Assembly (NCBI RefSeq): GCF_018350175.1
Contig: NC_058376.1
Coordinates: forward strand, 14,198,001-14,262,000
DNA: 64,000 nt
Reading direction: 5' to 3'
From: Felis catus
Lineage: Eukaryota
Below, piece after piece: positions 28,169 to 60,580 of the stretch. Under the pieces are notes generated by a model that saw nothing but the letters and a program-made list of their open reading frames with translations, was not told the origin of the DNA and made no database searches. The position numbers were made by a program, and so were the translations under genes. Within the stretch, counting starts at the first letter, position 1. Each line of letters starts with the position of its first letter.

Positions 28169-28392
28169 CAGAGTTTCTAGATCCCAGTACTGTTGATATT
28201 TTGGACCAGCTATTTCATTGTTGTTGGGGCTGTTCTGTGCCCTGAAGAATTTGCAGCATCCCCAGTTTCTACCACTACATGCCAGTAGCATCCAACCACA
28301 CCCAAGCCTTGACAGTTGACCACCTGTCTAGATATTGTCAATTGTCTCCAAGATTCCAAGAGGCAAAATCACTCACAGGTTGACAACTACTG
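28169..28392 (+). mobile_element. MER20 (hAT-Charlie), near full length
   Basis: cagagtttct..tactgttgatattttggaccag..ttgttgttggggctgttctgtgc..ctaccactacatgccagtagca..ggcaaaatcac..ggttgacaactactg with CAG..CTG termini, ~224 bp. Confidence 0.85.
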
Positions 28393-32192: not shown

Positions 32193-32480
32193 ATGTGTTG
32201 CAACTACGGCAGCTCCTGTGGCTATGGCTGTGGATATGGCCCCTATTATGGCTGTGGTTATGGAACAGGCTATGGCTGTGGCTATGGTAGGGGATGTGGC
32301 TGTGGATGTGGCTCCTGGTATGGCTGTGGCTCTGGCTGTGGATATGGCTCAGGATATGGCTGTGGCTATGGCCCCTGCTGTGACTATGGCACCAGATATG
32401 GCTGTGGCTGTGGCTATGGCTCTGGTTGCTGTGGCTACCGACCATTTTGCTATAGAAGATGTTATTCTTCTTGCTGCTAG
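32193..32480 (+). CDS. KRTAP21: Keratin-associated protein, KRTAP21-like, copy 1 (95 aa, class A)
   Basis: MCCNYGSSCGYGCGYG...CCGYRPFCYRRCYSSCC; single exon; TATA and AATAAA (32756); N- and C-termini match the KRTAP21 family. Confidence 0.92.
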   Translation: MCCNYGSSCGYGCGYGPYYGCGYGTGYGCGYGRGCGCGCGSWYGCGSGCGYGSGYGCGYGPCCDYGTRYGCGCGYGSGCCGYRPFCYRRCYSSCC

Positions 32481-32755
32481 AACATCACTGTCCAAGCCAC
32501 ATTTGCTTCTGAAATGACACACCTTAATAGAGGGCTGAGTCAAGGATCCATACCCCAAGATTTCTATATCCAAGAAATTGTATGCTTCACAGAGGGTTTG
32601 ACCACTGGTCAACTATTGTAGGATGGCATCTTGCGGCTGTATAGTATCATCTTACTTTTTTTCATATATTGGTCTTTACTTCCTTAATCTGGATTCTGCA
32701 TTGTGACCGTGGCAACAATCCTAACACCCCGCAGTTGGGGAAATCCTTTATTCTC

Positions 32756-32761
32756 AATAAA
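32756..32761 (+). terminator. Polyadenylation signal of gene 1 (paralogues at 36680, 40684, 44771, 48752, 52444, 56686, 60427)
   Basis: ctcAATAAAaatg conserved in all eight copies, followed by T/GT-rich sequence. Confidence 0.88.
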
Positions 32762-35700
32762 ATGGTTCTTTGCTTCTAACACGTCTCTGTGTTCTTGCTT
32801 GTGAATTACTCCTTTTTTCAGGTGTTATGGCTTCTCTTGAAAATTGGGCTGACAGTGTTTCATGAACCTGGGGCTCCTCCTTGATATAATACAAGCATTT
32901 CTACTCATAGGTGAATCAGAGAAAATGTCTTCTTCACCTGTTTCTCATATTCCTCTTGCTAAGGTCCTCAAAACCCAACACAAATCACATAGTATTTCAG
33001 AACTGTCACCTGGATATCACAGTGTATCTAGAATGGAGGTGGAGGGGAAAGATAAGGAGGAATGACATCTCTTCAGGAGGTTGTGACACAAGCTCAAGGG
33101 AGAGGAGGTGTGGCCTGAGTACTTCAAGGATGGAGTGGAAGAGAGAGTTTCCAGGATTAATGAGAAATTAGAAATGGACTCAGGTGTCTAATGAACTAAG
33201 GAAAGGGTAATTTAGAAGAAAGATGTGGTATTGTAGCCTCTGTATTTTAATGGAAGTCCGGATGTATTTGTTGGCATATATTGAGAGTGAGGAAATTGAT
33301 TTCAGTCACTTAACTCACAAATAGTTTAGAATGTTTATTAAAGGGAACTATCCTACATGCTGAAGATACAGGAGCAAAATTGTAGACAGGATTCCTGCTG
33401 TCAGAGCATTTCCATTCTAGTAAGTGAAAATTAAAAAAAAAAAAGAATTAATTCGGATAAATTTAGAGAGATAATTCCTATGGAGGGAATAAAACAGCAT
33501 CCTTGGGAAGAGAGTTGCAGGATGAAGTATTGGAGAGTTAGTTCAAGGAGGTATTTTGACATTTTGTGTAAAATGAATTAATGCCCGTTGAAAGAAATAC
33601 TAGAATGAACAGCTGTAGGTATAAAGAGGAAAGAGAAATTCATTAAGTTTTGGGTATGATCAGTGGTGCCACAATTTTTGGTAGAAAGGAGCAATGATCT
33701 AGTGCTGTAAATGAGCTCTCTTTGTTTGGGGCACATATAAGAATGAGATTAATAGTCCCAGTTGATTTTCTGAGTTTGAGGGCTGACTACTTTGTTAGGT
33801 TCTGACTTCAGTGTTCTATCCCTGTGTGACTTTCCAAATCTCTAACATTTGACCCTACATCAGAAAATGTCTTTTCAGACTGAATTTCCACCAATAGAAA
33901 AAATGAGTCATTGTCTCATCTCCATGACAAGGGTCACTGCACAAAGTTTGGATCTGAGGAACTTGGAGCTAGGAGACTAAAACACGGCCAATTCCAAGGA
34001 AGATGGCTCTGTCATCAAGGACAGCCCTGAAGTGAGGTTATGCCCAGGATATAATGTGTCTTGCTGATGAATAAATAAGGCTTCTTTTAAGGGTTGAATA
34101 GTTTTCATAGATAGGATATTTGTAAGTAATTTCTGGGGACTGACTGTGCTCTGGGTTAATCTGAGGTGGGTACCACTTACAAACAGCAGAAAGGAATGCT
34201 AATAATTACAGTTTGTTAAAAATTTACTCATTGTTTCATTATGTTCTTGTCTTTGAAGGCTTTCTGAAAGAGGGAAGAATATCAAATTAGGCACTTGTAT
34301 AATAATTTACAAATCCACTAAAGGGTTAATAATTTATTAGGTATATAAGATAATTTATACAACAGGAAAAATGTGTTCATAAACCGACGACTATCTCCAA
34401 ATGTGAAATTTGAGGCTCACTCAAAGAACATTTGTGACTCTCAGCTTGAATGGATTAAGAACATTGTGATAATACATTGAATTATCTTATAACTACTAAA
34501 TGCACACCAACGTTGGAACACATTTTTGTTTTAATTCATTTTTTAATTGGGGAAATATTGACTGATTTCAAATTATGTGCCAGGAACTCTACCTACTGGT
34601 GATACTGATGATTTCTTCTGCCGTAATGGATCTGTATCCAGAGATCTGAATGGAAAGGTACTAGAAATAATGCAATTAAAGCTAGAAAACTTTTCCAATA
34701 GTTCAGAAGTATTGTGACAAGAAAGAGGGTGTTAGAAAAACAAGTGTGTATTCTAGGGATTTTGTGCATTAGAGTTTATAGCTGTGAATTTCAAGAATGG
34801 TAGAAAAGTAGAGAAAATTAAGTCAAAGAACAATTGTAATGGATATAGTTTCCTTAAACTTCCTGTAAGGGATGAATCACAGCAGAGTGATCAGATAGAC
34901 CAGTGACCAGTATTAGAAAAAGTAATAGGAAATACTGTCAAGTGAAGGAAAAATGTCTACTAAGGAAGGATCACAGGAAAGGAAATCAGCAGTTTTATGA
35001 AATTCCCAGTTGAAAGCATTTAATAAAAGACTGGATGTCACACATTTCTTTGTTGGGAAATTTTAGTGTGGAAGTAGAGGGAATAATCTTCCTGAATTTG
35101 TACTCTCTTCCAGCTTGGATTTTATAGTTGTCACATTAAAAAGTAATGCAAATTTTGGATTCTGCCAGATTCATAAAATGGTGATTGATGTAAAGCCTAG
35201 ACAATGAAGATAAGCAAAAACATCCCAAGAAACAACCATACAAACAAAAAACAGNNNNNNNNNNNNNNNNNNNNNNNNNNNNNNNNNNNNNNNNNNNNNN
35301 NNNNNNNNNNNNNNNNNNNNNNNNNNNNNNNNNNNNNNNNNNNNNNNNNNNNNNNNNNNNNNNNNNNNNNNNNNNNNNNNNNNNNNNNNNNNNNNNNNNN
35401 NNNNNNNNNNNNNNNNNNNNNNNNNNNNNCTGTTGATGGAATGCTTCTATATTTGGTTTACCTGAAGAGAAAGGAAATATTTGGAATTAGACACCAATAA
35501 ATAGAGAAGCTATAGATGCAAGGTTATAAACCAAGGTTTCTAGATCTCAACACTATTGGCATAGTATAGCAGATATTTCATTGTTGTTGGGGTTTGTTCT
35601 GTGGCTTGGGATTAGAGTCTTCCCTCATTTCTCCCACATGCAGCTAGTAGGTATCTGCAGTAGGTATCTGGATGTCAGAATCCTGGCAAGATGTTGCAAT

Positions 35701-36153
35701 GTTTCCAGGAAGGAGATGAAGTATTTCTTTCCTTGTGGGCAGAGGTAGATATTTTGGGAGTGTGGAAAGATCAAGGAGGACAAAACTTTCCAAAATTTCC
35801 CTCAGCCTTATTATATAAAGTATGTTAAAAGATAGGACGTTGTAAACATGATTCCAGTTTTACCTAAAGCACATGATTCTCCTGAAATATTTTTTTTTGG
35901 CAGAGTGAATTAAAATGCTGTTCTTTAAATAAAACTGGAGTCTCCATATTAATGAGATCACGTTACCCAAGACATTATTGATTGTTGACAGTGACTGGAA
36001 CAACACAGTTGCTTACATATTTGTTGGGTAAGTCAGGGGATGAGTGACATGCTCTGCTAATTACTGACAGTATATAAGGGTCCAAAGCAAGTAGAAGACA
36101 CGCACTTCACCACATCCTCCCACAACCCACGTGAATTCTCTTCTCTTGGCAAG

Positions 36154-36399
36154 ATGTGTTGCAACTACGGCAACTCCTGTGGCTATGGCTGTGGATATGG
36201 CTATGGCTGTGGATGCAGTCCCTATTATGGCTGTGGCTATGGCCTCCGTTATGGCTGTGGCTATGGCTCAGGATATGGCTGTGGCTATGGCTCCTGCTGT
36301 GGTTATGGCACCGGATATGGCTGTGGCTATGGCTATGGCTCCAACTTCTGTGGCTACCGGCCATTTTTCTATAGAAGATGTTATTCCTCTTGCTGGTAG
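36154..36399 (+). CDS. KRTAP21: KRTAP21-like copy 2 (81 aa, class B, ends SSCW)
   Basis: Intact G/Y/C-rich ORF; TATA 36071; AATAAA 36680. Confidence 0.92.
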   Translation: MCCNYGNSCGYGCGYGYGCGCSPYYGCGYGLRYGCGYGSGYGCGYGSCCGYGTGYGCGYGYGSNFCGYRPFFYRRCYSSCW

Positions 36400-37355
36400 A
36401 ACATCACTGTCCAAGCCCCACTTGCTTCTGAAATGACATGCCTTAATAGAGGGCTGATTCATGGATCCATTCCCAAGATTTATATTTCCAAGTAATTGCA
36501 TGCTTCATAGGAGTTTTGACCTCAGGTGAACATTTGTGGGATGACATCTTCTGGCTTGAGGCTGTGTAGTGTTATCTGACTATTTTCCAAATGTTAGTCT
36601 TTACTCCCCTAATCTAGATTCTGTGTTGTGACTGTGGCAATGATCCTTTCATCCCACATTTAACAAATCCCATATTCTCAATAAAAATGGTTCTTTGCTT
36701 GTAACACATCTCTGTGTTTTTGTTTGTGAATTACTCCTTTTTTGAGATGTTGTATCCTCTCTTGATAATTGGACTTAAAACATATGTCATGAATATGAAG
36801 GCTCTTCCTTGACATAATACAAGCATTTCTTCTCTTATGTGCATCAGAGATAATGACTTCTCCAACTATTTCTTGTATCCCTAACACCACAACACAAATC
36901 ACACAATATAAGAACTGTGTTCTTGAAATAACACTGTATTTAGAATGGAGTTGAACAGGTAAGGGGGAGTTACAACACCTCTTCAGAAGATTGTGACACA
37001 AGTCCAAGGGAGAGGAGGTGTGGCCTGAGTGCTTCAAGGATGAATGGAATGGAAGAGAGAGTTTCTAGGATTAATGAGAAATTATAAGCAGCCTCAGCTG
37101 AGGTAAAAAGAACTAAGGAAATGCAAAGTAAAAGAAAAATGTGGTATCAATCATCTGCATTATGAAGGAAGTCCAAATATATCTGTTGGCATATATTGAG
37201 TTTGAGTAAATTGATTTAAGTCAATTAATTGACAAATCGTTTTGAATGTTTTTGAAAGGGAACTGTCTTACACCCTGAAGTCACAGTAGAAAAGTTATAG
37301 GTGAATTTCTTGCTCTCAGAGTGGTTCCATTCTAGTAGGTTAATAAAAAAAAAAG

Positions 37356-37412
37356 GAAGAAGAAGAAGAAGAAGAAGAAGAAGAAGAAGAAGAAGAAGAA
37401 GAAGAAGAAGAA
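37356..37412. repeat. (GAA)19 microsatellite
   Basis: Directly visible. Confidence 0.96.
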
Positions 37413-39016
37413 TTAATCAGATAAATGTAGAGAGATAGTTTCTATGGTGTGAATAAAACAGCATCCTTGGGAAGAGAGTGCAGGTTTAAGTTTTGCAGAA
37501 TTAATTTAATGTGGTTTTCTGACATTTTGTTCAAATGAACTGATGTCACTTTCAAGAAAATACTAGAAAGGACAGTTGTAAATGTAAAGGGGAAAGAGAA
37601 AATCATGAGTTTTGGGTATGATCAGTGGTGCCACAATTTTTAGTGCAAAAGAACAAAGCCTAGTGCTTTAAATGGGCTCATTGATGGGGCAGATATAAAA
37701 TGAGATAAATAGTTCCAGTTGATTTTCTGAGTTTGAGGGAGTACTACTTTGTTGTACTACTTTGTTGTAGACCTCCAACATTTAGGTCCTACAAAAAAAA
37801 TGTCTTTCAGACACAATTTCAACCAGCAGAATAAAAGACTCAATGTCTCATCTCCATGACAAGGGTCACTGCTCAAAGTCTGGGTCTGAGAACCCTTGCT
37901 CCTGGGCTCCACGACATGGCCAATTCCAAGGAAGATGGCTCTGCCATCAAGGTCAGTCCTGGAGGGAAACTACACCCAGGATATAATGTGTCTTACTGAC
38001 GAGGAAAGAGATGTTCTTTCAAGAGTTGGGCAATTCTCACAGATGGAACATCTGTAAGTCATTTCTGAAGACTGACTGTGTTCTGGATAAATCAGAGGTG
38101 AGAAAATTGTATACACAGGGAGAGTCAATTCCAATCATTACAGTTTGTTGAACATCTAACTTATGGTTTCATTAGGTTCATTTTCATTGAACACTACCTG
38201 AAAGAAGGCAGAATAGTATTCATTAGGCACCTATCTCATACGTTCTATTTCTAGTAAAGGGTTTATCATTTATTAGGCATATGAGGCAACTTGTATATCT
38301 GTAGAAATGACTTTGAAAACTAACAGATATCTTCACAAGGTGAAATTTGTGACTGTTTTAGCCATGAACATTTGGGACTTTCGGCTTGAATGAATTGAGA
38401 ACATTATGACCTGTATCCACATTCTTATAGATTCTAAGTGATACCAACGTTTGAACATGTTTTTTTTTTTTAATGTGTCTGTTTGTTATTGGCAGAAATA
38501 TTGAGTTGAGATTTGTGCCAGGCACTATGCTTAGAACTAACCGATGATTCAAGGACACACAGAAGAAAAGATCTTTTCCTGCCATTAAACATCAGTGTCC
38601 CGAGCTCTTAATGGAAGTGTATAGAAATAAGGCAATAAAGATAGGAAGTGTTTTTCAATAGTTTGTGGGCATTGTGACCAGAGAGTGGCTGTTTAAAAAG
38701 TATCATGCCTATTCCAGGGAACTCATGCATTGGAATTTATGGTTTTGAATTTCAATAATGATGGAAAAGTAGGAAAATTAAAGGTAAAGAACATTTGTAA
38801 GGGGATATATATGTTTTAAATTTGTTGTTAGGGACGAAGCATAGTGGAGTGATCAGATAACCCATAAGCAATGTTAGAAAAAAAAAAACAGTAGGAAATA
38901 TTCTCAACCGGAGGAAAAATATCTAATAATGAAACTTCTCCGAAAAGGAAATCAGCAGTTTTATTAAAATCCCTGTGGAAGTCATTCAATAAAGGACTGG
39001 ATGACACTCATTTCTT

Positions 39017-39250
39017 TCTTTTTTTTTTTTTTTTTTTTTAATTTTTTTTTCAACGTTTATTTATTTTTGGGACAGAGAGAGACAGAGCATGAACGGGGGA
39101 GGGGCAGAGAGAGAGGGAGACACAGAATCGGAAACAGGCTCCAGGCTCTGAGCCATCAGCCCAGAGCTGATGGGGCTCGAACTCCCGGACCGTGAGATCG
39201 TGACCTGGCTGAAGTCGGACGCTTAACCGACTGCGCCACCCAGGTGCCCC
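39017..39250 (-). mobile_element. Young felid SINE (SINEC_Fc)
   Basis: CpG-rich, long polyT, perfect 17-bp TSD gatgacactcatttctt at 39000-39016 and 39251-39267; empty paralogous sites at ~51023 and ~58982. Confidence 0.97.
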
Positions 39251-40180
39251 GATGACACTCATTTCTTGATGTTGAAATTTGAGTGTGGAGCAGAAGAAAT
39301 GATACCCGATTTGTACTCATTTCCAACTAGGATAGTTGTCACAGTGAAAAGTAATTTAAATTTTGGATTCTGCCTGAATCTGAACATAGTAACCTAGACA
39401 ATGAAGATAAGCAAAAACATCACAAACAAACAAACAAACAATATCCCCCCTCCCCACCACTGTATGTCTGGTGAGTGAAAGGTTGGAGTTTCAGTTTAGT
39501 TGAGAAGAAAGGGAATATTTGTCCTTAGACACTAGTAAAGAGAGAATCTCATTTATAGATGTGAGGCTACAAAGCTAGGTTTCTTGATCTCAGCACGTTT
39601 GCCATTTGACATGAGGAATTTCAATGATGTTGAGGGCTATTCTGTGTCCTGAAATGGGCATCATCCTAGGTTTTACCACACAGAGCCAGTAGGTATCTGC
39701 GGCAAGTATGTGGGTGGAAGAAGCCTGGTAAAATGTTGCAATGATTCCAGAAAGGAGATGAATTTTTCTTTCCTTATGGACAGAGGTAGATGTTTTACAA
39801 GTGTGGAGAGATCAAGAAGGAGAAATATTTCCTAAAAATCCCTCAGCCTTCTTGTTAAATGATTGAAGAGTGTGAACATGGATTTTACTTTTACTTAGAG
39901 CACATGATTCTACCGAGAAATGTTTTATGGCAGAATGAAATAAAATGCTGTTTTTAATAAACCTGGAGTCTCCTTAATAATGAGCTTACATTGCCCAAGA
40001 CATTGTTGATTGTTGACAGTGACTGGCACAGTACAGTTGCTTACATATTTGTTGGGTAAGTCAGGGGATGAGTGACATGCTCTGCTATTACTGACAGTAT
40101 ATAAGGGTCCAAAGCAAGTAGAAGACACGCACTTCACCACATCCTCCCACAACCCACGTGAATTCTCTTCTCTTGGCAAG

Positions 40181-40402
40181 ATGTGTTGCAACTATGGCAA
40201 CTCCTGTGGCTATGGCTGTGGATATGGCTATGGCTGTGGATGCGGTCCCTATTATGGCTGTGGTTATGGCCTCCGTTATGGCTGTGGCTATGGCTCCTGC
40301 TGTGGCTATGGCACCAGATATGGCTGTGGCTATGGCTATGGCTCCAACTGCTGTGGCTACCGGCCATTTTTCTATAGAAGATGTTATTCCTCTTGCTGCT
40401 AG
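40181..40402 (+). CDS. KRTAP21: KRTAP21-like copy 3 (73 aa, class B)
   Basis: Intact ORF with 21 Gly, 16 Tyr and 16 Cys in 73 aa; TATA 40098; AATAAA 40684. Confidence 0.93.
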   Translation: MCCNYGNSCGYGCGYGYGCGCGPYYGCGYGLRYGCGYGSCCGYGTRYGCGYGYGSNCCGYRPFFYRRCYSSCC

Positions 40403-42329
40403 AACATCAATGTCCAAACCCCACTTGCTTCTGAAACGACACACCTTAAGAGAAGGCTCATTCAAGGATCTATACCCCAAGATTTATATATCGAAAACAT
40501 TGTATGTGTAATAGAAGATTTGACCTCCAGTAACATTTGTAAGATGGCAGCTTGTGGCTTGAGGCTATGGAGTATCATCTAACAGTTTTCCAAAGTGTTG
40601 GTCTTACTCCCTTAATATGGATTCTGTGTTGTGACTGTGGCAAGGATTTGAACATCCCACATTTGGGCAAACCCCTTATTCTCAATAAAAATGTTTCATT
40701 CCTTCTATCAAATGTCTCTGTTCTTTCTTGAGAAAGCCTCCTTTCTTGAGGTGTTATGGCCTCTCTTGAAAATGGGCTGACAATATATTTCATGTACCCG
40801 GGTCTCTTTCTGGATATCATACCAGCATTTCTTCTCTTACATGCATCGATATAGTGTCTTCTCCACCTAAGTCTCATATCCCTAACACTCCAACACAAAT
40901 CACACAGTATTCCAGAACTGTGCCCTGGAAATCACACTGTAGGTATAATGCATGTGGAGGGAAAAGACGAGGATGAGGAGGGATGGCATCTCCTGGGAGG
41001 TTGTGACAGAAGCCAAAGGGGAAGGGGGTGTGGCCTAAGCACTTAAAGGATGAATGTGATGGAAGAGAGAGTTTCTGGTATTCATGAGAAATTGGAAGCT
41101 GCCTCAGCTGAAGTGTAAAGAACCAAGGAAAGGGTACGTTAGAAGCAAAGCGTGGTATCATATCATCTGAATTGGATGGATTTGCTAATATATTTGTTGG
41201 CATAAAATGAGTTTGAAGATACTGATTTAAGTCACTTAATTGACAAATCCTTTTGAATGTGTTTGAAAGAGAACCATCCTACACACTGAATACACAGCAG
41301 ATAAATTGTAGATGAATTTCCTACCCTCAGAGTGTATATATTTTGTTGGTTTTAATAAATATTTTACAAATTAATTATGACAAATTTAGACACATAATTT
41401 GCTTGGAGAGAATAAAACAGCTTCCTGGGGAAGAGAATGAAGGTTCATTAAATATTGGAGAGATAGTTCGGGGTGGTACTTTGATGTTCGGTGTCAAACG
41501 AACTGATCAAGTTGAAAGAATGGGCAGAAAGGGCAGTACCAAGCAGAAAGGGGAAGAGAAATTCATTATGTGTTGGGTATGATCAATGGTGCCACAGTTT
41601 TCAGTTGAAAAGAGGAAGGAGTAGGGCTTTAATGGTGTCCTTTAGTGTCTTCCCTGGTGCGTATACAAGAATGGAATGAGAAGCCCAGTCCTTTCTGAGT
41701 TTGAGAACCTTCCGTTTGTTGGGGTCTGACTTCAGTGTCCTTTCCTCAGGTGCCATTCCAGAGCTCTCACCTTTAGATCCTACAATAGAAAATGTATTTC
41801 AGACTCAAATTCAACCAGCAGTGAAAAACCAATCACTGACTCATATGCATGGCAAAGGTGAGTGCACAAAGTCTGAGTGTGAGGATCCTAGAGCCAGGAG
41901 ACTCTAAACCATGTCAAATTCCAAGGAGGATGGCCTTGCCATCGAGGACAGCCCTGGATGGAGGCTATGCCCAGTATAGTAAGTGTCCTGCTGATGAAGA
42001 ATTAAGCCTTCTCTCAAGAGATGGAATATATGGGATAGTCTAAATCTGGAACACATGGGATAGTCTAAATCTGATGTGATGACTGAGTGTGCTCTGAGTT
42101 AGTCTAGGATGGGTACATCCTACAAACAGGGAAAAGAATTTTAATAATTACAGTTTTATGAAAATCTATTCATTGTTCCATTATGTTCCTTGTCTTTGAA
42201 AGCTTCTGAAGGAGGGAAGAATATCATCAATTAGGCACGTATATTATAATTTACATATGTAGTAAAGTTCTGGTTATTTATAAGGCATAGAAGAACATAT
42301 GGAACAATGTGTTCACAAACAGACAACAA

Positions 42330-42564
42330 TATTAATTAATTAACTAATTAATTAATTAGAAAAATTTTCATTTATTTATTTATTTTTTGAGAGATGGTGT
42401 CAGCCTGGGAGGGGCAGAGTGAGACGGAGACAGAGAATGTGAACCAGGTTTCAGGCTCCAGGCTGTCAGCATAGAGCCCTACATGGGGCTCGAACTCACA
42501 AACTGTAAGATCATCACCTGAGCTGAGGTTGGGCTCTTAACCAACTGAGCCACCCGGGAATCCC
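42330..42564 (-). mobile_element. Can-SINE in a Z-type spacer (same insertion as 54032-54322)
   Basis: SINE body flanked by cagacaac direct repeats; AT-rich (TTAA)-like tail. Confidence 0.9.
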
Positions 42565-44226: not shown

Positions 44227-44496
44227 ATGTGTTGCAACTACAGCAACTCTTGTGGCTATGGCTGTGGCTATGGCTGTGGCTATGGCTACGGCTGTGGCTA
44301 TGGCCCCTATTACAGCTGGAGTTATGGACCTGGCTATGGCTGTGGATATGGCTCCTGGTATGGCTGTGGCTCTGGCTGTGGATATGGCTCCTGCTGTGGC
44401 TATGGCCCCAGATATGGCTGTGGTTGTGGCTATGGCTCCAGCTGCTATGGTTACCGGCCATTTTGCTATAGAAGATGTTATTCTTCTTGCTGCTAG
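44227..44496 (+). CDS. KRTAP21: KRTAP21-like copy 4 (89 aa, class A)
   Basis: MCCNYSNSCGYG..RPFCYRRCYSSCC; TATA 44144; AATAAA 44771. Confidence 0.92.
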   Translation: MCCNYSNSCGYGCGYGCGYGYGCGYGPYYSWSYGPGYGCGYGSWYGCGSGCGYGSCCGYGPRYGCGCGYGSSCYGYRPFCYRRCYSSCC

Positions 44497-48237: not shown

Positions 48238-48471
48238 ATGTGTTGCAACTACGGCAACTCTTGTGGCTATGGCTGTGGATATGGCTACGGCTGTGGCTAT
48301 GGGCCCTATTATGGCTGTAGTTATGGACCTGGCTATGGCTGTGGATATGGCTGTGGATACGGCTCCTGCTGTGGCTATGGCACCAGATATGGCTGTGGCT
48401 GTGGCTATGGCTCTGGTTGCTGTGGCTACCGGCCATTTTGGTATAGAAGATGTTATTCTTCTTGCTGCTAG
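48238..48471 (+). CDS. KRTAP21: KRTAP21-like copy 5 (77 aa, class A)
   Basis: MCCNYGNSCGYG..RPFWYRRCYSSCC; TATA 48155; AATAAA 48752. Confidence 0.92.
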   Translation: MCCNYGNSCGYGCGYGYGCGYGPYYGCSYGPGYGCGYGCGYGSCCGYGTRYGCGCGYGSGCCGYRPFWYRRCYSSCC

Positions 48472-51400
48472 AACATCACTGTCCAAGACACATTTGCTTC
48501 TGAAGTGGCACGGCTTAAGGGAGGGCTGATTCATTGATTTATACCCCAAGATTTCTATATCCAATGAATTGCATGCTTTTGGTAATTGTGACCTCTATTT
48601 AGCAATTGTATGAAGGCTTCCTGTGGCTGAGGCTATGTGGTATCCTCTGACTATTTTCCAAATGTTAGTCTTCACTTCCCTAATCTGTGTTCTTTGTTGA
48701 GACTGTAGCAACATATCTAAAATCCCACAGTGAGGCAAATCCCTTATTCTCAATAAAAATGTTTCATTTTTTTTCTAAGTAATCTCTGTGTTCTGGCTAA
48801 TGAATGACTCCTTTTTGAGGTGTATGGCATCTTTTGAATCTTGGGCAACAATATATTTCATGAATCTGGGTCTCTTCCTAGATATAATATAAACCTTTCT
48901 TCTCTTATGTGCATCGGAGATAATGTCTTCTCCTATTTCTTGTATCCATAACACTGCAATATAAATCACACTGTGTAAGAACTATGTCCTTGAGGTAACA
49001 CTGTATCTAGAATGGAGCTGAGGGCTGGAGGGGTAAGAGGAAGAGTTAGGACACCTCTTTGGGAAGTTGTGACACAAGCTCAAGGGGGAGGAAGTATGGC
49101 CTGAGTGCTTCGAGGATGAATGGGGTTGAAGAGAGAAATTTTGGGATTAATGAGAAATTGGGAGCCGCCTCTGTTGAGATGTAAGAAACTAAGGAAATGA
49201 GAAGCAAAAGAAAAATGTGATATTGTATTATCTGCATTTTGATGGAAGTGCAAATACATTTTTTGCATATACTGAGTTTCAGTAAATTGATTTAAGTCCA
49301 TTAATTTCCAAATTGTTTTGAATGTTTTTGAAAGGGAACTGTCATACACTCTGAAGGCACAGTAGAAAAATTATAAGTGAATTTCTTGCTGTCAGATGGT
49401 TTCATTCTAGTAGGTTAAAAAAAAAGAAGAATTAATTCAGATAAATTTAGAGAGATAATTCCTATGGTGTGAATAAAACAGCATCCTTGAGAAGATTGAA
49501 GTATTGCAGAATTAGTTCAAGGATGTATTTTGACATTTTCTGTCACATGAACTGATGTCAGTTTCCAGAAATACTAGAAAGGACAGTTGTAAATGTAAAG
49601 TAGAAACAGAAATACATAAGGTTTTGGTATGATCAGTGGTGCCACGAGTTTTAGTGCAAAAGAACAATGGCTAGTGCCTTAAATGGGCTCTCTAATGGAG
49701 CAGATATAAAGTGTAATTAATAGTTCCAGTTAATTTTCTGAGTTTGAATGCGTACTACTTTGATGGATTCTGATTTCAGTGTGTTTCTCTCATGAGACTT
49801 TCCAGACCTCTAACATTTAGATCCTACAACAAAAATTGTCTTTCAGACACAATTTCAACCAGCAGAATAAAAGACTCACTGTCTCGTCTCCATGGCAAGG
49901 GTCACTGCACAAAATCTGGGTCTGAGAACCTTGGTTCTGGAGACTCCACAACTTGGCCAGTTCCAAGGAAGATGGCTCTGCCATCAAGGTCAGTCCTGGA
50001 GGGAAACTAAGCCCAGGATATAATGTGTCTTACTGATGAGGAAAGAGATGTTCTTTCAAGAGCTGGACAATTCTCACAGATGGAACATCTGTAAGTCATT
50101 TCTGGGGACTGACTGTGCTCTGGATAAATCAGAGGTGACAAAATTGTATACACAGGGAGAGTCAATTCCAATCATTACAGTGTGTTGAACATAGAACTTA
50201 TGGTTTCAGAAGGTTCATTTTCATTGAACACTACCTGAAAGAGGGCAGAATAGTATTTATTAGGCACGTATCTCATACTTTCTATTTCTAGTAAAGAGTT
50301 TATCATTTATTAAGTATATGACATAACTGGTATATCTGTAGAAATGACTTTGAAACCTAACAGATATCTTCAAAAGGTGAAATTTGTGACTGTTTTAGCC
50401 ATGAACTTTTGGGACTTTCGGCTTGAATGAATTGAGAACATTATGACCTATATCCACATTCTTATAGATTCTAAGTGATACCAACGTTTGAACATGGTTT
50501 TGTTTTAATGTGTCTTGTTTGTTATTGGCAGAAATATTGAGTTGAGATTATGTGCCAGGCACTATGCTTAGAACTAACCGATGATTCAAGGACACACAGA
50601 AGAAAAGATTTTTTTTTGCCATTAAACATCAGTGTCCTGAGCTCTTAATGGAAGTATATAGAAATAAGGCAATAAAGATAGGAAGTGTTTTTCAATAGTT
50701 TGTGGGCATTGTGACCAGAGAGTGGCTGTTTAAAAAGTATCATGTCTTGTGCATTGGAATTTATGGTTTTGAATTTCAATAATGATGGAAAAGTAGGAAA
50801 ATTAAAGGTAAAGAACATTTGTAAGGGGATATATATGTTTTATATTTGTTGTTAGGGATGAAGCATAGTGGAGTGATCAGATAACCCATAAGCAATATTA
50901 GAAAAAAAAACCAGTAAGAAATATTCTCAACCGAAGGAAAAATATCTAAAAATGAAACTTCTCGGAAAAGGAAATCAGCAGTTTGCTTAAAATCCCTGTA
51001 GAAGTCATTCAATAAAGGACTGGATGACTCTCATTTCTTGGTGTTAAAATTTGAGTGTGGAGTAGAAGAAATGATACCTGAATTTGTACTCATTTCCAAC
51101 TAGGATTTCATTGTTGTTACAGTGAAAAATAGTTTAAATTTTGGAATCTGCCTGGATATGAACATAGTGACCTGGACATTGAAGATAAGCAAAAACATCA
51201 CAAACAAATAAACAACATCCTCCCCCCCCCCCCCCCACTGTATATCTGGTGATGAAAGGGTTGGACTTTCAGTTTATTTGAGAAGGAGGGGAATCTTTGG
51301 ACATAGACACGAGTAAAGAGAGAATCTAATTTATAGATGTGAGGGTATAAAGCTAGGTTTCTCGATCTCAGCACTTTTGACATTTGACATGAGGCACTTC

Positions 51401-51957
51401 AGTGGTGTTGAGGGATTTTCTGTGTCATGAAATGGGCATCATCCTAGGTTTTACCACACAGAGCCAGTAGGTATCTGCGGCAGGTATGTGGGTGCAAGAC
51501 CTGGTAAAATATTGCAATGATTCCAGAAAGGAGATGAATTTTTCTTTCCTTATGGACAGAGGTAGATGTTTTACAAGTGTGGAGAGATCAAGAAGGAGAA
51601 ATAGTTCCTAAAAACCCCTCAGCATTCTTGTTAAATGATTGGAGATTGTGAACATGGATTTTGGTTTTACTCAGAGTCCATGATTCTACTGAGAAATGTT
51701 TTTTGGCAGAATGAAATAAAATGCTGTTTTTAATAAACCTGGAGTCTCCTTAATAATGAGCTTACATTGCCCAAGACAATGTTGATTGTTGACAGTGACT
51801 GGCACAGCACAGTTGCTTACGTATTTGTTGGGTATGTCAGGGGATGAGTGACATGCTCTGCTAATTACTGACAGTATATAAGGATCCAAAGCAAATAGAA
51901 GACACACACTTCACCACATCCATTCACAACCCACGTGAATTCTCTTCTCTTGGCGAG

Positions 51958-52161
51958 ATGTGTTGCAACTACGGCAACTCCTGTGGCTATGGCTGCGGAT
52001 ATGGCTATGGCTGTGGATGTGGTCCCTATTATGGCTGTGGTTATGGCCTCCGTTATGGCTGTGGCTATGGCACCGGATATGGCTGTGGCTATGGCTATGG
52101 CTCCAACTTCTGTGGCTACCGGCCATTTTTCTATAGAAGATGTTATTCCTCTTGCTGCTAG
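51958..52161 (+). CDS. KRTAP21: KRTAP21-like copy 6 (67 aa, class B)
   Basis: Intact ORF; TATA 51875; AATAAA 52444. Confidence 0.92.
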   Translation: MCCNYGNSCGYGCGYGYGCGCGPYYGCGYGLRYGCGYGTGYGCGYGYGSNFCGYRPFFYRRCYSSCC

Positions 52162-54031
52162 AACATCACTGTCCAAACCCCACTTGCTTCTGAAATGACA
52201 CGCCTTTAGAGAAGGCTCCTTCAAGGATCTATACCCCAAGATTTATATATCGGGAACATTGCATGTGTCATAGAAGTTTTGACCTCCAGTAACATTTGTA
52301 ATATGGCATCTTGTGGCTTGAGGCTATGGAATATCATCTAACAGTTTTCCAAAAAGTGTTGGCTTACTCCCTTAATATGGATTCTGTGTTGTGACTGTGG
52401 CAAGGATTTGAACATCCCACATTTGGGCAAATCCCTTATTCTCAATAAAAATGTTTCATTCCTTCTATCAAATGTCTCTAGTCTCTCTTGAGAAAGCCTC
52501 CTTTCTCTAGGTGTTATGGTCTCTCTTGAAAATTGGACTGACAATATATTTCATGTACCGGGGTCTCTTTCTTGATATCATACAAGCATTTCTTCTCTTA
52601 CATGCATCGATATAATGTCTTCTCCACCTATGTTTCATATCTCTAGCACAGTACTGCAGAACTGTGCCCTGGAAATCACACTGTAGGTAGAATGGATGTG
52701 GAGGGAAAAGACGAGGATGAGGAGGGATGGCATCTCCTGGGAGGTTGTGACAGAAGCCATAGGGGAAGGGGGTGTGGCCTGATCACTTAAAGAATGAATG
52801 TGATGGAAGAGAGAGTTTCTGGCATTCATGAGAAATTGGAAGCTGCCTCAGCTGAAGTGTAAAGAACCAAGGAAAGGGTACGTTAGAAGCAAAGCGTGGT
52901 ATCATATCATCTGAATTGGATGGATTTGCTAATATATTTGTTGGCATAAATTGAGTTTGAAGAAGTTGATTTAAATCACTTAATTGACAAATCCTTTTGA
53001 ATGTGTTTGAAAGAGAACCATCCAACACAATGAATACATAGTAGAAAAATTGCAGATGAATTTCCTACTCTCAGAGTGTTTACATTTTGTTGGTGTTAAT
53101 AAATATGTTACAAATTAATTATGACAAATTTAGACACATAATTTGCTTGGAGAGAATAAAACAGCTTCCTGGGGAAGAGAATGAAGGTTCATTAAATATT
53201 GGAGTGATAGTTCGGGGTGGTACTTTGATGTTCAGTGTCAAACGAACTGATCAAGTTGAAAGAATGGGCAGAAAGGGCAGTACCAAGCAGAAAGGGGAAG
53301 AGAAATTCATTATGTGTTGGGTATGCCACATGGTGCCACAAGTTTCAGTTGAAAAGAGGAAGGAGTAGGGCTTTAATGGTGTCCTTTAGTGTCTTCCCTG
53401 GTGCGTATACAAGAATGGGATGAGAAGCCCAGTCCTTTCTGAGTTTGAGAACCTTCCGTTTGTTGGGGTCTGACTTCAGTGTCCTTTCCTCAGGTGCCAT
53501 TCCAGAGCTCTCACCTTTAGATCCTACAATAGAAAATGTATTTCAGACTCAAATTCAACCAGCAGTGAATAACCAATCACTGACTCATATGCATGACAAA
53601 GGTGAGAGCACAAAGTCTGAGTGTGAGGATCCTAGAGCCAGGAGACTCTAAACCATGTCAAATTCCAAGGAGGATGGCCTTGCCATCGAGGTCAGCCCTG
53701 GATGGAGGCTATGCCCAGTATAGTAAGTGTCCTGCTGATGAAGAATTAAGCCTTCTCTCAAGGGATGGAATTATCACACATGGCATAGTCTAAATTTGAT
53801 GTGATGACTGAGTGTGCTGTGAGTTAGTCTAGGATGGGTACATCGTACAAACAGGGAAAAGAATTCTAATAATTACAGTTTGTTGAAAATCTATTCATTG
53901 TTTCATTATGTTCCTTGTCTTTGAAGGCTTCTGAAGGAGGGAAGAATATCATCAGTTAGGCATGTACATTATAATTTACATATCTAGTAAAGTTCTGGTT
54001 ATTTATAAGGCATAGAAGAACATATGGAACA

Positions 54032-54322
54032 NNNNNNNNNNNNNNNNNNNNNNNNNNNNNNNNNNNNNNNNNNNNNNNNNNNNNNNNNNNNNNNNNNNNN
54101 NNNNNNNNNNNNNNNNNNNNNNNNNNNNNNNNNNNNNNNNNNNNNNNNNNNNNNNNNNNNNNNNNNNNNAGGGGCAGAGTGAGAAAGAGACACGGAATCT
54201 GAATCAGGCTTCAGTCTCCAGGCTGTCAGCACAGAGCACTACACGGGGCTCGAACTCACAAACCATAAGATCATCACCTGAGCTGAGGTTGGACACTTAA
54301 CCAACTAGCCACCCAGGCACCC
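54032..54322 (-). mobile_element. Can-SINE, paralogous duplicate of 42330-42564 (tail in N gap 54032-54169)
   Basis: Same flanks (catatggaaca / cagacaacta) and shared diagnostic bases (aagatcatcacctgagctgaggttgg). Confidence 0.88.
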
Positions 54323-56139
54323 TCAGACAACTATCTTTAAGGTGTGAAATTTGAGACTCTCTTAGTCCAAGAATATTGGAGATTTTCGGGTTGAATGGAA
54401 TGAGAATATTGCGATACTATATTGAATTTTTTTATAACTTCTAAATGGCACAACAACATTTCAACACGGTTTTGTTCTAATGCATTTTTTAATTGGACAA
54501 ATACTGATGGAATTCAAATTATGTGCAAGGCTGTACTTTCTCTGGAAAGAAGGGTGCACAGAATAAGAGACTTTTTTTCCCTGCCATTATGCATCTGTAT
54601 TCAGAAACCTGAATGGAAAAGTACTAGAAATAATGCAATAGAGCTAGAAAACTTTTTCAATAGGTCAGGAGTATTGTGAGAAGAAAGAGGGTGTTAGAAA
54701 AGCAAAGTGTGTATTCTAGGGATTTTGTGCATTAGAGCTTATAGTTGTGAATTTCAACAATGGTAGAAAAATAGCGAAAATTAAGCTAAAGAACAATTGT
54801 AGTGGGTATTTTCCTTAATTTCTTTTAGTTTTCCTTAAATTTTCCTTAAATTTGTTTTAAGGGATGAATCACAGCAGAGGGATCACATACCCCAGACTAA
54901 AAGTAGTAGGAAATACTTTCAACTGAAGGAGAAATGTCTACTAAGGAAAGATCACAGGAAAGGAAATCAGCAGTTTTATGAAATTCCCGTTTGAAAGGAT
55001 TCAGGAAAAGACTGGATGTTCCACATTTCTTTGATGATGGGAAATTTTAGCGAGGAGTAGAAATAATGATTTTCCTGAGTTTATACACCCTTCCAGCTTG
55101 GATTTTATAGTTGTCACAGTAAAAAGTAATGCAAATTTTGGATTCATAAAATGGTGATTGATGTAAAGCATAGACAACCAAGAAGAGCAGAATATCCCAA
55201 GAAACAACCATGCAAANNNNNNNNNNNNNNNNNNNNNNNNNNNNNNNNNNNNNNNNNNNNNNNNNNNNNNNNNNNNNNNNNNNNNNNNNNNNNNNNNNNN
55301 NNNNNNNNNNNNNNNNNNNNNNNNNNNNNNNNNNNNNNNNNNNNNNNNNNNNNNNNNNNNNNNNNNNNNNNNNNNNNNNNNNNNNNNNNNNNNNNNNNNN
55401 NNNNNNNNNNNNNNNNNNNNNNNNNNGAATGATTGGATAAAGTGTTTAGTTAAGAAAAAAAGGAAGTATTTGGAATTAGATACCAATAAAGAGAGAATAT
55501 AGAGATGTTAGATTCAAACCAAGGTTGCTAGATCTCAACACTATTGGCATTGTACAGCAGAAGTTCCAGTGTTGTTGGGCTTTGTTCTGATGGCTGGAAT
55601 TAGCATCTTCCCTCGTTTATCACACATGGAACTAGTAGGTATCTGCAGTAGGTATCTGGGGGTGAGCAGGCAGAAAAAATTTGCAATGATTTCAGAAGGG
55701 AGATGGGAGTTATTTCCTTCCCTATGGGGACAGGTAGATAGCTTAGGAAAGAGGAGATAATAAGAGGACAAAATTTTCCTAAATGTCCCTCAATGATGAT
55801 ACATAAGGTAAATTAAATGACAGTGAGTTGTGAAGGTGGGTACCAGTTTTACATATGGCCCATGATTCTAGTGAGAGATTCTTTGGCAGAACAAATTAAA
55901 TGCTGTTCTTTAAATATAACTGGAGACTCCAACAGAATGAAGTCATATTTCCCAAGACTTTTATTGATTGTTGACAGTGAGTGGCATACCAGAAGTGCTT
56001 ACATATTTGTTGGGTATGTCAGGGGATGAATGGTATGTTCTGCCAATTACTGACAGTATATAAAGGTCCAAGGCTAGTAGAAGACACACAGTTCACCACA
56101 TCCTCTCACAACCCACGTGAAATCTCTTCTTTTGACAAG

Positions 56140-56403
56140 ATGTGTTGCAACTATGGCAACTCCTGTGGCTATGGCTGCGGATATGGCTACGGCTGTGGCT
56201 ATGGCACCAGATATGGCTGTGGCTGTGGCTATGGGCCCTATTATGGCTGTAGTTATGGACCTGGATATGGCTGTGGATATGGCTGTGGATACGGCTCCTG
56301 CTGTGGCTATGGCACCAGATATGGCTGTGGCTGTGGCTATGGCTCTGGTTGCTGTGGCTACCGGCCATTTTGGTATAGAAGATGTTATTCTTCTTGCTGC
56401 TAG
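56140..56403 (+). CDS. KRTAP21: KRTAP21-like copy 7 (87 aa, class A)
   Basis: Same protein as copy 5 plus a 10-aa insertion; TATA 56057; AATAAA 56686. Confidence 0.92.
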   Translation: MCCNYGNSCGYGCGYGYGCGYGTRYGCGCGYGPYYGCSYGPGYGCGYGCGYGSCCGYGTRYGCGCGYGSGCCGYRPFWYRRCYSSCC

Positions 56404-59400
56404 AACATCACTGTCCAAGAAACATTTGCTTCTGAAGTGGCACGGCTTAAGGGAGGGCTGATTCATTGATTTATATCCCAAGATTTCTATATCCAAAAAG
56501 TTGGATGCTTTTGGGAATTTGTGACCTCAAGTTAGCATTTGTATGAAGGCATCCTGTGGCTGAAGGCTATGTGGTATCCTCTGACGATTTTCCAAATGTT
56601 AGCCTTTACTTCCCTAATCTGGGTTCTTTGTTGAGACTGTGGCAACATATCTAAAATCCCACAATTAGGCAAATCCCTTATTCTCAATAAAAATGTTTCA
56701 TTTTTTTCCAACAAATCTTTGTGTTCTTGCTTGTCAATGACTCCTTTCTGAGGTCTTATGTTATCTTTTGAATCTTGGGCAACAATATATTTCATGAACC
56801 TGGGTCTCTTCCTAGATATAATATAAGCATTTCTTCTCTTATGTGCATCAGAGATAATATCTTCACCTATTTCTTGTATCCATAACTCCTCAACATAAAT
56901 CACACTGTGTAAGGAGTATGTCCTTGAGATAACACTGTATCTAGATTGGAGCTGAAGGCTGGAGGGGTAAGAGGAGGAGTTAGGACACCTCTTCGGGAAG
57001 TTGTGACACAAGCTCAAGAGGGAGGAAGTATGGCATGAGTGCTTCAAGGATGAAAGAAATTGAAGAGAGAATTTTTGGGATTAATGAGAAATTGGGAGCT
57101 GCCTCTGCTGAGATATAAAATAGTAAGGAAATGAGAAGCAAGAGAATAATGTGGTATTGTAACATCTGCATTTTTATGGAAGTGCAAATACATTTGTTGG
57201 CATATATTGAGTTTGAGTAAATTGATTTAAGTCAATTAATTGACAAATCGTTTTGAATGTTTTTGAAAGGGAACTGTCTTACACCCTGAAGGCACAGTAG
57301 AAAAGTTATAGGTGAATTTCTTGCTCTCAGAGTGGTTCCATTCTTGTAGGTTAATAAAAAAAAAAAAGAAGAAGGATTAATCAGATAAATGTAGAGAGAT
57401 AATTCCTATGGTGTGAATAACATAGCATCCTTGGGAAGAGAGTGCAGGTTTAAGCTCTGGAGAATTAATTGAAGGAGGTTTTTTGACATTTTGTGTCAAA
57501 TGAACTGATGTTACTTTCAAGAAAATACTAGAAATACAGTTGTAAAGGGGAAAGAGAAAATCATGAAGTTTTGGGTATGATCAGTGGTGCCCCAATTTTT
57601 AGTGCAAAAGAACAATGGCTAGTGCCTTAAATGGGCTGTCTTTGTGTGGGGCAGAAATAGAATGAGATTAATAGTTCCAGATTGATTTTCTAAGTTTGAT
57701 AGCTTACTACTTTGTTGGATTCTGATTTCAGTGTGCTTCTCACTTATGCCTTTACAGACCTCTAACATTTATATCCTACAACAAAAAAAGTCTTTCAGAC
57801 ACAATTTCAACCAGCAGAATAAAAGACTCAATGTCTCATCTCCATGACAGGGGTCACTGCACAAAATCTGGGTCTGAGAACCCTTGGTCCTGGAGACTCC
57901 ACCACATGGCCAATTCCAGGGAAGATGGCTCTGCCATTAAGGTCAGTCCTGGAGGGAAACTACACCCAGGATATAATGTGTCTTACTGATGAGGAAAGAG
58001 ATGTTCTTTCAAGAGCTGGACAATTCTCACAGATGGAACATCTGTAAGTCATTTCTGAAGACTGACTGTGTTCTGGATAAATCAGAGGTGAGAAAATTGT
58101 ATACACAGGGAGAGTCAATTCCAATCATTACAGTTTGTTGAACATCTAACTTATGGTTTCATTAGGTTCATTTTCATTGAACACTACCTGAAAGAAGGCA
58201 GAATAGTATTCATTAGGCACCTATCTCATACGTTCTATTTCTAGTAAAGGGTTTATCATTTATTAGGCATATGAGGCAACTTGTATATCTGTAGAAATGA
58301 CTTTGAAAACTAACAGATATCTTCACAAGGTGAAATTTGTGACTGTTTTAGCCATGAACATTTGGGACTTTCGGCTTGAATGAATTGAGAACATTATGAC
58401 CTGTATCCACATTCTTATAGATTCTAAGTGATACCAACGTTTGAACATGTTTTTTTTTTTAATGTGTCTGTTTGTTATTGGCAGAAATATTGAGTTGAGA
58501 TTATGTGCCAGGCACTATGCTTAGAACTAACCGATGATTCAAGGACACACAGAAGAAAAGATCTTTTCCTGCCATTAAACATCAGTGTCCCGAGCTCTTA
58601 ATGGAAGTGTATAGAAATAAGGCAATAAAGATAGGAAGTGTTTTTCAATAGTTTGTGGGCATTGTGACCAGAGAGTGGCTGTTTAAAAAGTATCATGCCT
58701 ATTCCAGGGAACTCATGCATTGGAATTTATGGTTTTGTATTTCAATAATGATGGAAAAGTAAGAAAATTAAAGGTAAAGAACATTTGTAAGGGGATATAT
58801 ATGTTTTAAATTTGTTGTTAGGGACGAAGCATAGTGGAGTGATCAGAACCCATAAGCAATGTTAGAAAAAAAAACAGTAGGAAATATTCTCAACCGGAGG
58901 AAAAATAATAATGAAACTTCTCCGAAAAGGAAATCAGCAGTTTTATTAAAATCCCTGTGGAAGTCATTCAATAAAGGACTGGATGACACTCATTTCTTGG
59001 TGTTGAAATTTGAGTGTGGAGTAGAAGAAATGATACCTGAATTTGTACTCATTTCCAACTAGGATTTCATAGTTGTCACAGTGAAAAGTAATTTAAATTT
59101 TGGAATCTGCCTGGATATGAACATAGTGACCTAGACAATGTAGATAAGCAAAAATATCACAAACAAACAAACAAACAAACAATATCCCCCCTCCCCACCA
59201 CTTTATGTCTGGTGAGTGAAAGGTTGGAGTTTCAGTTTAGTTGAGAAGAAAGGGAATATTTGTCCTTAGACACTAGTAAAGAGAGAATCTCATTTATAGA
59301 TGTGAGGCTACAAAGCTAGGTTTCTTGATCTCAGCACTTTTGCCATTTGACATGAGGAATTTCAATGATGTTGAGGGCTATTCTGTTTCCTGAAATGGGC

Positions 59401-59922
59401 ATCATCCTAGGTTTTACCACACAGAGCCAGTAGGTATCTGCGGCAGGTATGTGGGTGCAAGAAGCCTGGTAAAATGTTGCAATGATTCCAGAAAGGAGAT
59501 GAATTTTTCTTTCCTTATGGACAGAGGTAGATGTTTTACAAGTGTGGAGAGATCAAGAAGGAGAAAATTTTCCTAAAAACCCCTCAGCCTTCTTATTAAA
59601 TGATTGAAGAGTGTGAACATGGAGTTTGGTTTTACTTAGAGTCCATGATTCTACTAAGAAATGTTTTTTGGCAGAATGAAATAAAATGCTGTTTTTAATA
59701 AACCTGGAGTCTCCTTAATAATGAGCTCACGTTGCCCAAGACATTGTTGATTGTTGACAGTGACTGGCACAGCACAGTTGCTTACATATTTGTTGGGTAA
59801 GTCAGAGGATGAGTGACATGCTCTGCTAATTACTGACAGTATATAAGGGTCCAAAGCAAGTAGAAGACACGCACTTCACCACATCCTCTCATAACCCACG
59901 TGAATTCTCTTCTCTTGGCAAG

Positions 59923-60144
59923 ATGTGTTGCAACTACGGCAACTCCTGTGGCTATGGCTGCGGATATGGCTATGGCTGTGGATGCAGTCCCTATTATGGC
60001 TGTGGCTATGGCCTGCGTTATGGCTGTGGCTATGGCTCCTGCTGTGGCTATGGCACCGGATATGGCTGTGGCTATGGCTATGGCTCCAACTGTTGTGGCT
60101 ACCGGCCATTTTTCTATAGAAGATGTTATTCCTCTTGCTGCTAG
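59923..60144 (+). CDS. KRTAP21: KRTAP21-like copy 8 (73 aa, class B)
   Basis: Intact ORF; TATA 59840; AATAAA 60427. Confidence 0.92.
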   Translation: MCCNYGNSCGYGCGYGYGCGCSPYYGCGYGLRYGCGYGSCCGYGTGYGCGYGYGSNCCGYRPFFYRRCYSSCC

Positions 60145-60580
60145 AACATCACTGTCCAAACCCCACTTTTTCTGAAATGACACGTCTTAAGAGAAGACTC
60201 ATTCAAGGATCTATACCCCAAGATTTATATATTGGGAACACTTTATGTGTCATACAAGATTTGACCTCCAGTAACATTTGTGGCATGTTATCTTGCGAAT
60301 TGAGGCTATGGAGTATCATCTAACAGTTTTCCAAAAAGTGTTGGCCTTACTCCCTTAATATGGATTCTGTGACGTGACTGTGGTGAGGATCTGAACATCC
60401 CACATTTGGGCAAATCCCTTATTCTCAATAAAAATGTTTCATTATTTCCATCAAATGTCTCTGTTCTTTCTTGTGAAAGCCTCCTTTCATGAGGTGCTAT
60501 GGCCTCTCTTGAACATTGGGCTGACAATATATTCCGTGTACCCGGGTCTCTTTCTTGATATAATACAAGCATTTATTCTC

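Follow-up and report, generated by a model that had tools for sequence, protein, structure and literature searches.

The KRTAP21 genes encode keratin-associated hair proteins of the high glycine-tyrosine class. Eight intact KRTAP21-like open reading frames (ORFs) of 67-95 amino acids (aa) lie in tandem, with successive starts 3720-4182 bp apart, in a 64,000-nt stretch of Felis catus DNA (RefSeq assembly GCF_018350175.1, contig NC_058376.1, positions 14,198,001 to 14,262,000 of the forward strand), hereafter called the window, in whose numbering all coordinates are given. In an original prediction, the spacers that follow the eight genes were assigned to three types, X, Y and Z, in the order X-Y-Z-X-Y-Z-Y-Z. 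We argue, with a probability of about 0.72, that the spacers are mosaics, generated by block duplications of different ages and later overwritten by sequence exchange between copies. Like other members of the KRTAP21 subfamily, the cat genes are short, intronless, Gly/Tyr/Cys-rich tandem ORFs, and the eight copies fall within the range of 0-13 reported across 22 mammals, equalling the eight of panda (PMC4180150). The array adds a further example of block duplication with conversion in a KRTAP cluster, a form of turnover that is ordinary for gene clusters, and involves no new mechanism.

Comparison with described systems

Surveys that used back-translated coding alignments reported little conversion in the high glycine-tyrosine KRTAPs, at least in the portions of the two papers available (PMC4180150, PMC2528016). 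A row of supplement 4 of PMC4180150 tabulates recombination events in KRTAP21 coding sequences for several species, panda apparently among them, and the accessible part of the gene-conversion table in the same supplements has no match to KRTAP21 as a term. So far as these excerpts go, the surveys differ from the present case in working on coding alignments, whereas what is seen here is a mosaic at the level of the spacers and an alternating cassette of two gene types, A and B. Conversion in the high glycine-tyrosine KRTAPs is readily visible in spacers and promoters, where coding-only surveys found little. No description of a felid KRTAP21 array, of its spacer mosaic or of the A/B cassette was found in the literature searched, which covered few subscription papers.

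A precedent for the copying of whole blocks comes from the bovid beta-globin cluster, for which the available part of one study describes en bloc duplication and triplication of a multi-gene block, with one block deleted in one lineage (PMC7299627). In both systems a multi-gene block has been copied along with its intergenic DNA. The bovid blocks, as described there, span tens of kilobases and hold paralogues with distinct developmental roles, whereas the felid blocks measure 8-12 kb and are heavily overwritten.

Higher-order repeats are the other close comparison. In alpha satellite and in the NBPF/Olduvai triplets, a gene-level example, as in the cat array with its monomers about 20-28% apart, monomers stand in a fixed local order, and multimers are more alike than neighbouring monomers. 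According to the part of the source available, canonical higher-order copies are <5% apart and about tenfold less diverged than their monomers, with NBPF20 at ~1.6% versus 18% between monomers (PMC9584774). The cat spacers resemble such monomers in their divergence, usually ~20-40% (between-class identity here is 71.6-81.5% over whole spacers), and in a non-random order in which Y is always followed by Z. They depart from them in that Y and Z each form one full-length clade but X does not, and in that the copies are not within 5% of each other (92.6% identity for two-gene cassettes, 86.4% for three-gene blocks). Alpha satellite and NBPF, in the material at hand, comprise many copies, whereas the cat array has two to three partial copies 7-14% apart, with chimeric units. 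The satellite-like organisation originally proposed therefore holds only in a loose sense.

Spacer classes

Evidence for the spacer classes came from a maximum-likelihood tree of whole spacers 1-7, with X, Y and Z set beforehand by the original prediction. Spacers 2, 5 and 7 (Y) and spacers 3 and 6 (Z) each formed a clade with support of 100/100. Spacer 4 was joined to Z, also at 100/100, and an X clade of spacers 1 and 4 was rejected by the approximately unbiased (AU) test (p-AU 2.9e-7). Of the three clades that had been expected, Y and Z therefore stand over the whole spacer; X stands in alignment columns 0-1250. Similarly, the claim that similarity is much higher within than between types is correct for Y (88.9-92.7% identity) and Z (94.1%) but not for X, since spacers 1 and 4 are 82.5% identical and spacer 4 is 81.5% and 81.2% identical to the Z spacers 3 and 6, the highest of the between-class values.

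Individual markers give a similar picture. A 32-mer quoted as shared by spacers 1 (32,481-36,153) and 4 (44,497-48,237) has exactly two occurrences, at 33,170 and 45,191, each one base before where it had been placed; a 3-bp gap at this site is common to the same two spacers and absent from the other five. The near-identity noted between 41,343-41,907 and 53,087-53,651 was confirmed, with 551 of 565 positions matching. Spacer 3 (40,403-44,226) contains a short interspersed element (SINE) at ~42,340-42,565 that is common to spacers 3 and 6 only and so marks Z. Among indels, the split of spacers 3 and 6 from the rest has five (two of which are parts of the shared SINE), that of 2, 5 and 7 has four, that of 1 and 4 has three, and those of 1, 2 and 4 and of 3, 4 and 6 have two each; the splits 5/7, 2/7 and 2/4/5 have a single indel each. 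As for the order of the letters, each Y is followed by Z, an arrangement found in 10 of 560 possible letter orders, and the eighth letter rests on a 436-bp stub. This stub, spacer 8, is Z-like (89.9% and 89.5% identical to spacers 3 and 6); it is so short because an L1-like element starts at 60,581, and it was excluded from all trees but that of the 3' untranslated region (UTR) segment.

Spacers as mosaics

In sliding windows, within-type identity ranges from the low 70s to 100%. Segment boundaries were picked after inspection of the sliding-window table, so the P values for segments are somewhat optimistic. The tree of columns 0-1250 contains exactly the three predicted classes, X and Y at 100/99 each and Z at 100/100. 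Divergence (K) in this segment is 0.199 +/- 0.029 between the X spacers 1 and 4, 0.211 +/- 0.030 between the Y spacers 2 and 5, and 0.054 between the Z spacers 3 and 6. Spacer 4 groups with Z (100/99) in columns 1250-3510, where the X clade is rejected (p-AU 0.0013). At the promoter end the same grouping has support of 100/100 and the X clade is rejected more strongly (p-AU 1.1e-11); here spacer 4 matches spacers 3 and 6 at 95-96% identity but spacer 1 at 81%, and spacers 4 and 6 are sisters at only 85/87. Removal of the promoter end leaves the tree undecided (X at 50/30), and a rival topology is not rejected (p-AU 0.46). Spacer 4 is best described as chimeric, X-like to ~45,660 and allied to Z from there on, with an A-type promoter at its end.

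Among the Y spacers, spacer 7 groups with spacer 5 as its sister (100/100) over the 5' part and lies nearer to spacer 2 after ~57,200 (maximum chi-square 105). Within spacer 2 (36,400-40,180), whose 5' ~700 bp are 74-85% identical to the other Y spacers, a tract at 38,031-39,000 matches spacer 7 from ~58,021 at 907 of 909 aligned sites (columns 1720-2990), with a longest unbroken run of 429 bp. The two spacers share 299 consecutive polymorphic columns, compared with a null maximum of 72 in permutations (p 0.0005). Shared tracts are equally significant for spacers 2/5, 3/4, 4/6 and 1/2 (p 0.0005 each), the last at 36,006-36,151, and four shorter tracts have p 0.001-0.01, uncorrected for the 21 pairs. 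Segment trees with AU tests and the permutation test both give tracts of conflicting genealogy, as expected of en bloc duplication with gene conversion.

Two minor features of spacer 2 were noted. A young SINE at ~39,011-39,250 (minus strand), which adjoins the end of the tract shared with spacer 7, occurs in spacer 2 only and is absent from spacers 5 and 7. It has 12 CpG dinucleotides, a long A tail and a target-site duplication of ~16 bp, and is a possible presence/absence marker among felids. The SINEs of the window presumably resemble a carnivore SINE family. The same spacer contains a perfect (GAA)19 microsatellite at 37,356-37,412.

Gene types and block structure

The genes fall into two types, with gene 1 apart. 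All eight genes are on the plus strand. Genes 2 (36,154-36,399, 81 aa), 3 (40,181-40,402, 73 aa), 6 (51,958-52,161, 67 aa) and 8 (59,923-60,144, 73 aa) are of B type, ~97% identical and with a GLRY motif. Genes 5 (48,238-48,471, 77 aa) and 7 (56,140-56,403, 87 aa) are of A type and 98.3% identical to each other. The proximal promoters of these two and of gene 4 (44,227-44,496, 89 aa), the last carried at the end of spacer 3, are 98.3-98.6% identical. Gene 1 (32,193-32,480, 95 aa) belongs to neither type and has its own type of promoter. Gene 2 has a B-type coding sequence in non-B surroundings: it is ~97% identical to genes 3, 6 and 8 in its coding sequence, yet only 76-79% in the 3' flank. 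Its proximal promoter, the last ~150-300 bp of spacer 1, is also of B type. Genes 2 and 5, which should be partners if a 12-kb block had been duplicated, differ in both coding and promoter type.

Self-comparison of 31.8-60.6 kb gives long diagonals at offsets near 4, 7.9, 11.8-12.1, 16, 20 and 24 kb. The original prediction of strong diagonals at ~11.7-12, ~8 and ~20 kb was borne out, the strongest self-alignments lying at offsets of 7905 bp (91.0% over 5178 bp), 11,772 bp (92.6% over 3068 bp), 19,989 bp (85.9%) and 12,083 bp. The copies are colinear across genes and intergenic DNA, as in en bloc duplication: a 5.1-kb alignment at offset 7905 spans two genes, and further colinear alignments of 3.1-3.6 kb lie at offsets of ~11.8-12.1 kb. 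The 7905-bp offset corresponds to a two-gene cassette of ~7.9 kb. Copy 1 (47,522-55,426) runs from an A promoter through gene 5, a Y spacer, a B promoter and gene 6 to a Z spacer, and copy 2 (55,427-60,580) repeats this with genes 7 and 8 and the Z stub. The copies are identical at 4684 of 5059 sites throughout.

The relationship between the first two three-gene blocks is less even. When the 12-kb block is compared with its partner, the 5' half is 79.3% identical and the 3' half 92.9%, and whole-spacer K between blocks 1 and 2 is 0.201 for X, 0.121 for Y and 0.062 for Z (chi-square 234, p 1.8e-51). A single, untouched 12-kb duplication is rejected because it predicts equal divergence of X, Y and Z. 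The prediction of an old triplication followed by duplication of a 12-kb three-gene block can be kept in part, since X1-X4 and Y2-Y5 have equal K in the first ~1.2 kb, and must be given up in part, since divergence over whole spacers is unequal. Judged from these sequence distances, the 12-kb duplication probably describes the oldest layer of the array; the 5' third of X and Y gives modest support for such a layer. Given the unequal divergence between blocks and the mismatch in type between genes 2 and 5, the present high similarity of Y and of Z would stem from younger events. Loss of X from a third block by unequal crossover is better replaced by gain of a two-gene cassette.

Proposed history and alternatives

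The clades, the discordant segment trees and the uneven divergences are observed; from them we infer the following events and their order. An ancient amplification of single genes would have given the X, Y and Z spacer types (K ~0.28-0.35). An old duplication of a three-gene block (K ~0.20) may then have occurred, its trace now limited to the ~1.2 kb that follow genes 1/4 and 2/5. Subsequently, unequal crossover between the distal ends of spacers 4 and 6, which are similar, could have duplicated the 7.9-kb cassette of gene 5, Y, gene 6 and Z, with genes 7 and 8 as the product (K ~0.09); distal X and Z spacer ends are still ~85-92% alike. If so, gene 7 would carry a copy of the gene 5 promoter, and the promoter ends of spacers 4 and 6 should be sisters, as they are in the tree, though only at 85/87. 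Finally, the Y-gene 3-Z segment would have been homogenised with the cassettes through gene conversion or additional crossovers, for the most part between spacers of one type (Y-Y and Z-Z), the most recent event being the exchange of ~0.9 kb between spacers 2 and 7. Out-of-register exchanges would have affected chiefly promoters and coding regions (genes 4, 5 and 7, and gene 2). The order of the letters is probably a by-product of recombination.

Rough ages can be attached to these steps. A blanket mammalian rate of 2.22e-9 per site per year is quoted, and criticised as a blanket value, in the available part of a preprint (bioRxiv 10.1101/2024.04.06.587788). With this rate and half of it, a bracket of our own choosing, K of 0.20 corresponds to 45-91 million years (Myr), 0.086 to 19-39 Myr, 0.062 to 14-28 Myr, and the tract shared by spacers 2 and 7 to <1 Myr. 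The crown age of living cats is roughly 10-15 Myr. On these estimates, most of the structure predates the living cat lineages and should be common to other felids.

Several observations weigh against the mosaic history proposed here. A single genome can neither fix the order of events nor tell conversion from crossover, and conversion and crossover are described as not separable from such data in the part of an earlier survey available (PMC2528016). In columns 0-1250, the between-class pair of spacers 1 and 2 has a K of 0.226, against 0.199 for the two X spacers. In a 300-bp nearest-copy scan, spacer 1 and the first 1.9 kb of spacer 4 are each other's closest match in most windows, which favours the X label more than the trees do. 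Moreover, the sharpest switch from X to Z in spacer 4 coincides with a run of N in the assembly, which raises the question of whether the spacer order is partly an assembly product, through misjoining of pieces at N runs or collapse of near-identical tracts between copies. The N runs, in spacers 1, 4 and 6, occupy a single homologous position a short way before genes 2, 5 and 7, where gap-free copies have low-complexity tracts, and the 2/7 tract is 99.8% identical, as collapse might produce. Nonetheless, the sequence from gene 2 through most of spacer 4 (Y-Z-X) is a single N-free stretch of 11.8 kb, and spacer 4 turns to Z within it, before the N run; the mosaic is therefore independent of joins at N runs, whereas the placement of the cassette is not. 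The copies are also 6-12% apart, far more than is usual for alleles; a protein identical to that of gene 1 has been recorded from a 158.6-Mb contig; and 63-72% of sampled words from spacer 4 occur in 20 of the 24 sequencing runs listed, from 10 studies, which speaks to their presence and is not proof of order. Taken together, an assembly product has only a slim chance of being the explanation, the least of the alternatives considered.

The original prediction in its strict form, an old triplication, one 12-kb block duplication and the loss of X from a third block through unequal crossover, leaving a satellite-type higher-order repeat, is very improbable. It accounts for the diagonals at ~12 kb, for the three indels common to spacers 1 and 4, and for the three clades and the matching distances of X and Y that the spacers show in their 5' third. 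However, divergence varies threefold along the block, overall identity between blocks 1 and 2 is only 86.4%, an X clade over the whole spacer is rejected, and genes 2 and 5 are unlike in coding and promoter type, so that all the later exchanges of the mosaic history would have to be added; refuted as stated, it survives as the oldest layer. Somewhat less improbable, though still doubtful, is a history in which three genes were never duplicated together, and two-gene Y-Z cassettes were copied among older single genes, with the likeness of the X spacers an old conversion tract or retained ancestral sequence. All of the young similarity indeed falls in the two-gene phase; spacers 1 and 4 are scarcely closer to each other than spacer 4 is to Z (82.5 vs 81.5%); and informative sites favour 3/4/6 over 1/4 by ~91 to 34 (top nine patterns per segment). 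Against it, X-X and Y2-Y5 have diverged to a similar extent in the 5' third (0.199 and 0.211), where the X clade is supported at 100/99. Mosaic spacers laid down by duplications of different ages and then overwritten remain the preferred reading.

An extension of this reading is unlikely. The array could be an early-stage, self-maintaining higher-order gene repeat, in which X, Y and Z have become too diverged to recombine with one another and exchange is confined to like spacers in register, keeping an alternating A-gene/B-gene cassette, with either gene type linked to a promoter of its own, as an evolutionary unit, perhaps selected for a fixed ratio of two hair-matrix proteins in cats. Were this true, felids would differ in how many copies of the 7.9-kb cassette they carry, and such a repeat would have been found in a KRTAP class reported to have little conversion.

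The array serves as a compact worked example of the origin and maintenance of multi-gene order within a cluster of hair-protein genes. It also implies that one-to-one orthology among felid KRTAP21 genes is unreliable, and it makes the 7.9-kb cassette and the 99.8% identical tract candidate sites of copy-number variation affecting coat traits.

Identity of the genes

Each of the eight ORFs has the organisation of KRTAP21, a short single exon with a TATA-like box (TATATAA) aligned ~80 bp upstream and an AATAAA signal ~275-285 bp beyond the stop codon. Composition is likewise that of a Gly/Tyr-rich KRTAP21, with Gly at 0.29-0.31 and Tyr at 0.22 in those four ORFs that are not extended upstream. 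A search with the gene 3 protein gave 14 matches, with felids on top: nine named KRTAP21 or KRTAP21-like (names from automatic "-like" annotation), two KRTAP6-2, and three unnamed or hypothetical. Against Pfam PF11759 (KRTAP), gene 4 alone exceeds the curated cut-off (24 bits vs 21.1); six further genes match below it, and gene 3 has no match.

Longer ORFs of 115-134 aa, read from upstream ATGs, were considered as real proteins and rejected, since the extension crosses the TATA-like box and is open in only four of the eight copies. The upstream ATGs lie at 32,076, 44,113, 48,124 and 56,026. An N-terminal extension of 38-39 aa that runs through the TATA-like box is present in database KRTAP21-like proteins of felids, horse and muntjac, where it is probably an annotation artefact.

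Comparison with other felids was made with three named felid proteins. Gene 4 is identical to Acinonyx (cheetah) XP_053076346.1 at 80 of 81 aligned residues, and gene 1, translated from the upstream ATG, clusters at 90% with Lynx XP_030184360.1; both matches agree with the felid origin of the window. The snow leopard protein has an A-type upstream sequence, with 38 of 38 residues in frame with gene 4; the same protein scores best against the B-type gene 3 and ends in a C-terminal W as in gene 2. This combination of A-type upstream sequence, best score against a B-type gene and terminal W occurs in none of the eight window genes. One predicted protein of this kind hints that separate reshuffling may have taken place in other felids.

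Flanking sequences and other remnants

The visible array ends at an element on the minus strand (60,581-64,000) that cuts spacer 8 and runs off the window. It spans at least 3.4 kb, with a T-rich end and long minus-strand ORF pieces, and from sequence features of this kind we take it to be L1-like. A shorter L1-related piece, 73-80% identical, lies at ~13,566-14,865. At the other end of the array, the region from 26.7 to 32.2 kb was considered as a ninth unit and rejected, as it aligns at only ~50% overall and has no gene. Within it, 26,846-28,288 is a degenerate distal spacer with a promoter remnant, 65-71% identical to the array spacers and with no gene behind it; it is possibly what is left of a lost older unit. 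Two broken KRTAP-like genes lie farther upstream on the plus strand. In the one at ~11,870-12,070, the reading frame is Gly/Tyr/Cys-rich, lacks a start codon where one would be expected and changes close to the 3' end. The one at ~23,660-23,860 has a frame change and short stretches 67-73% similar to the array genes.

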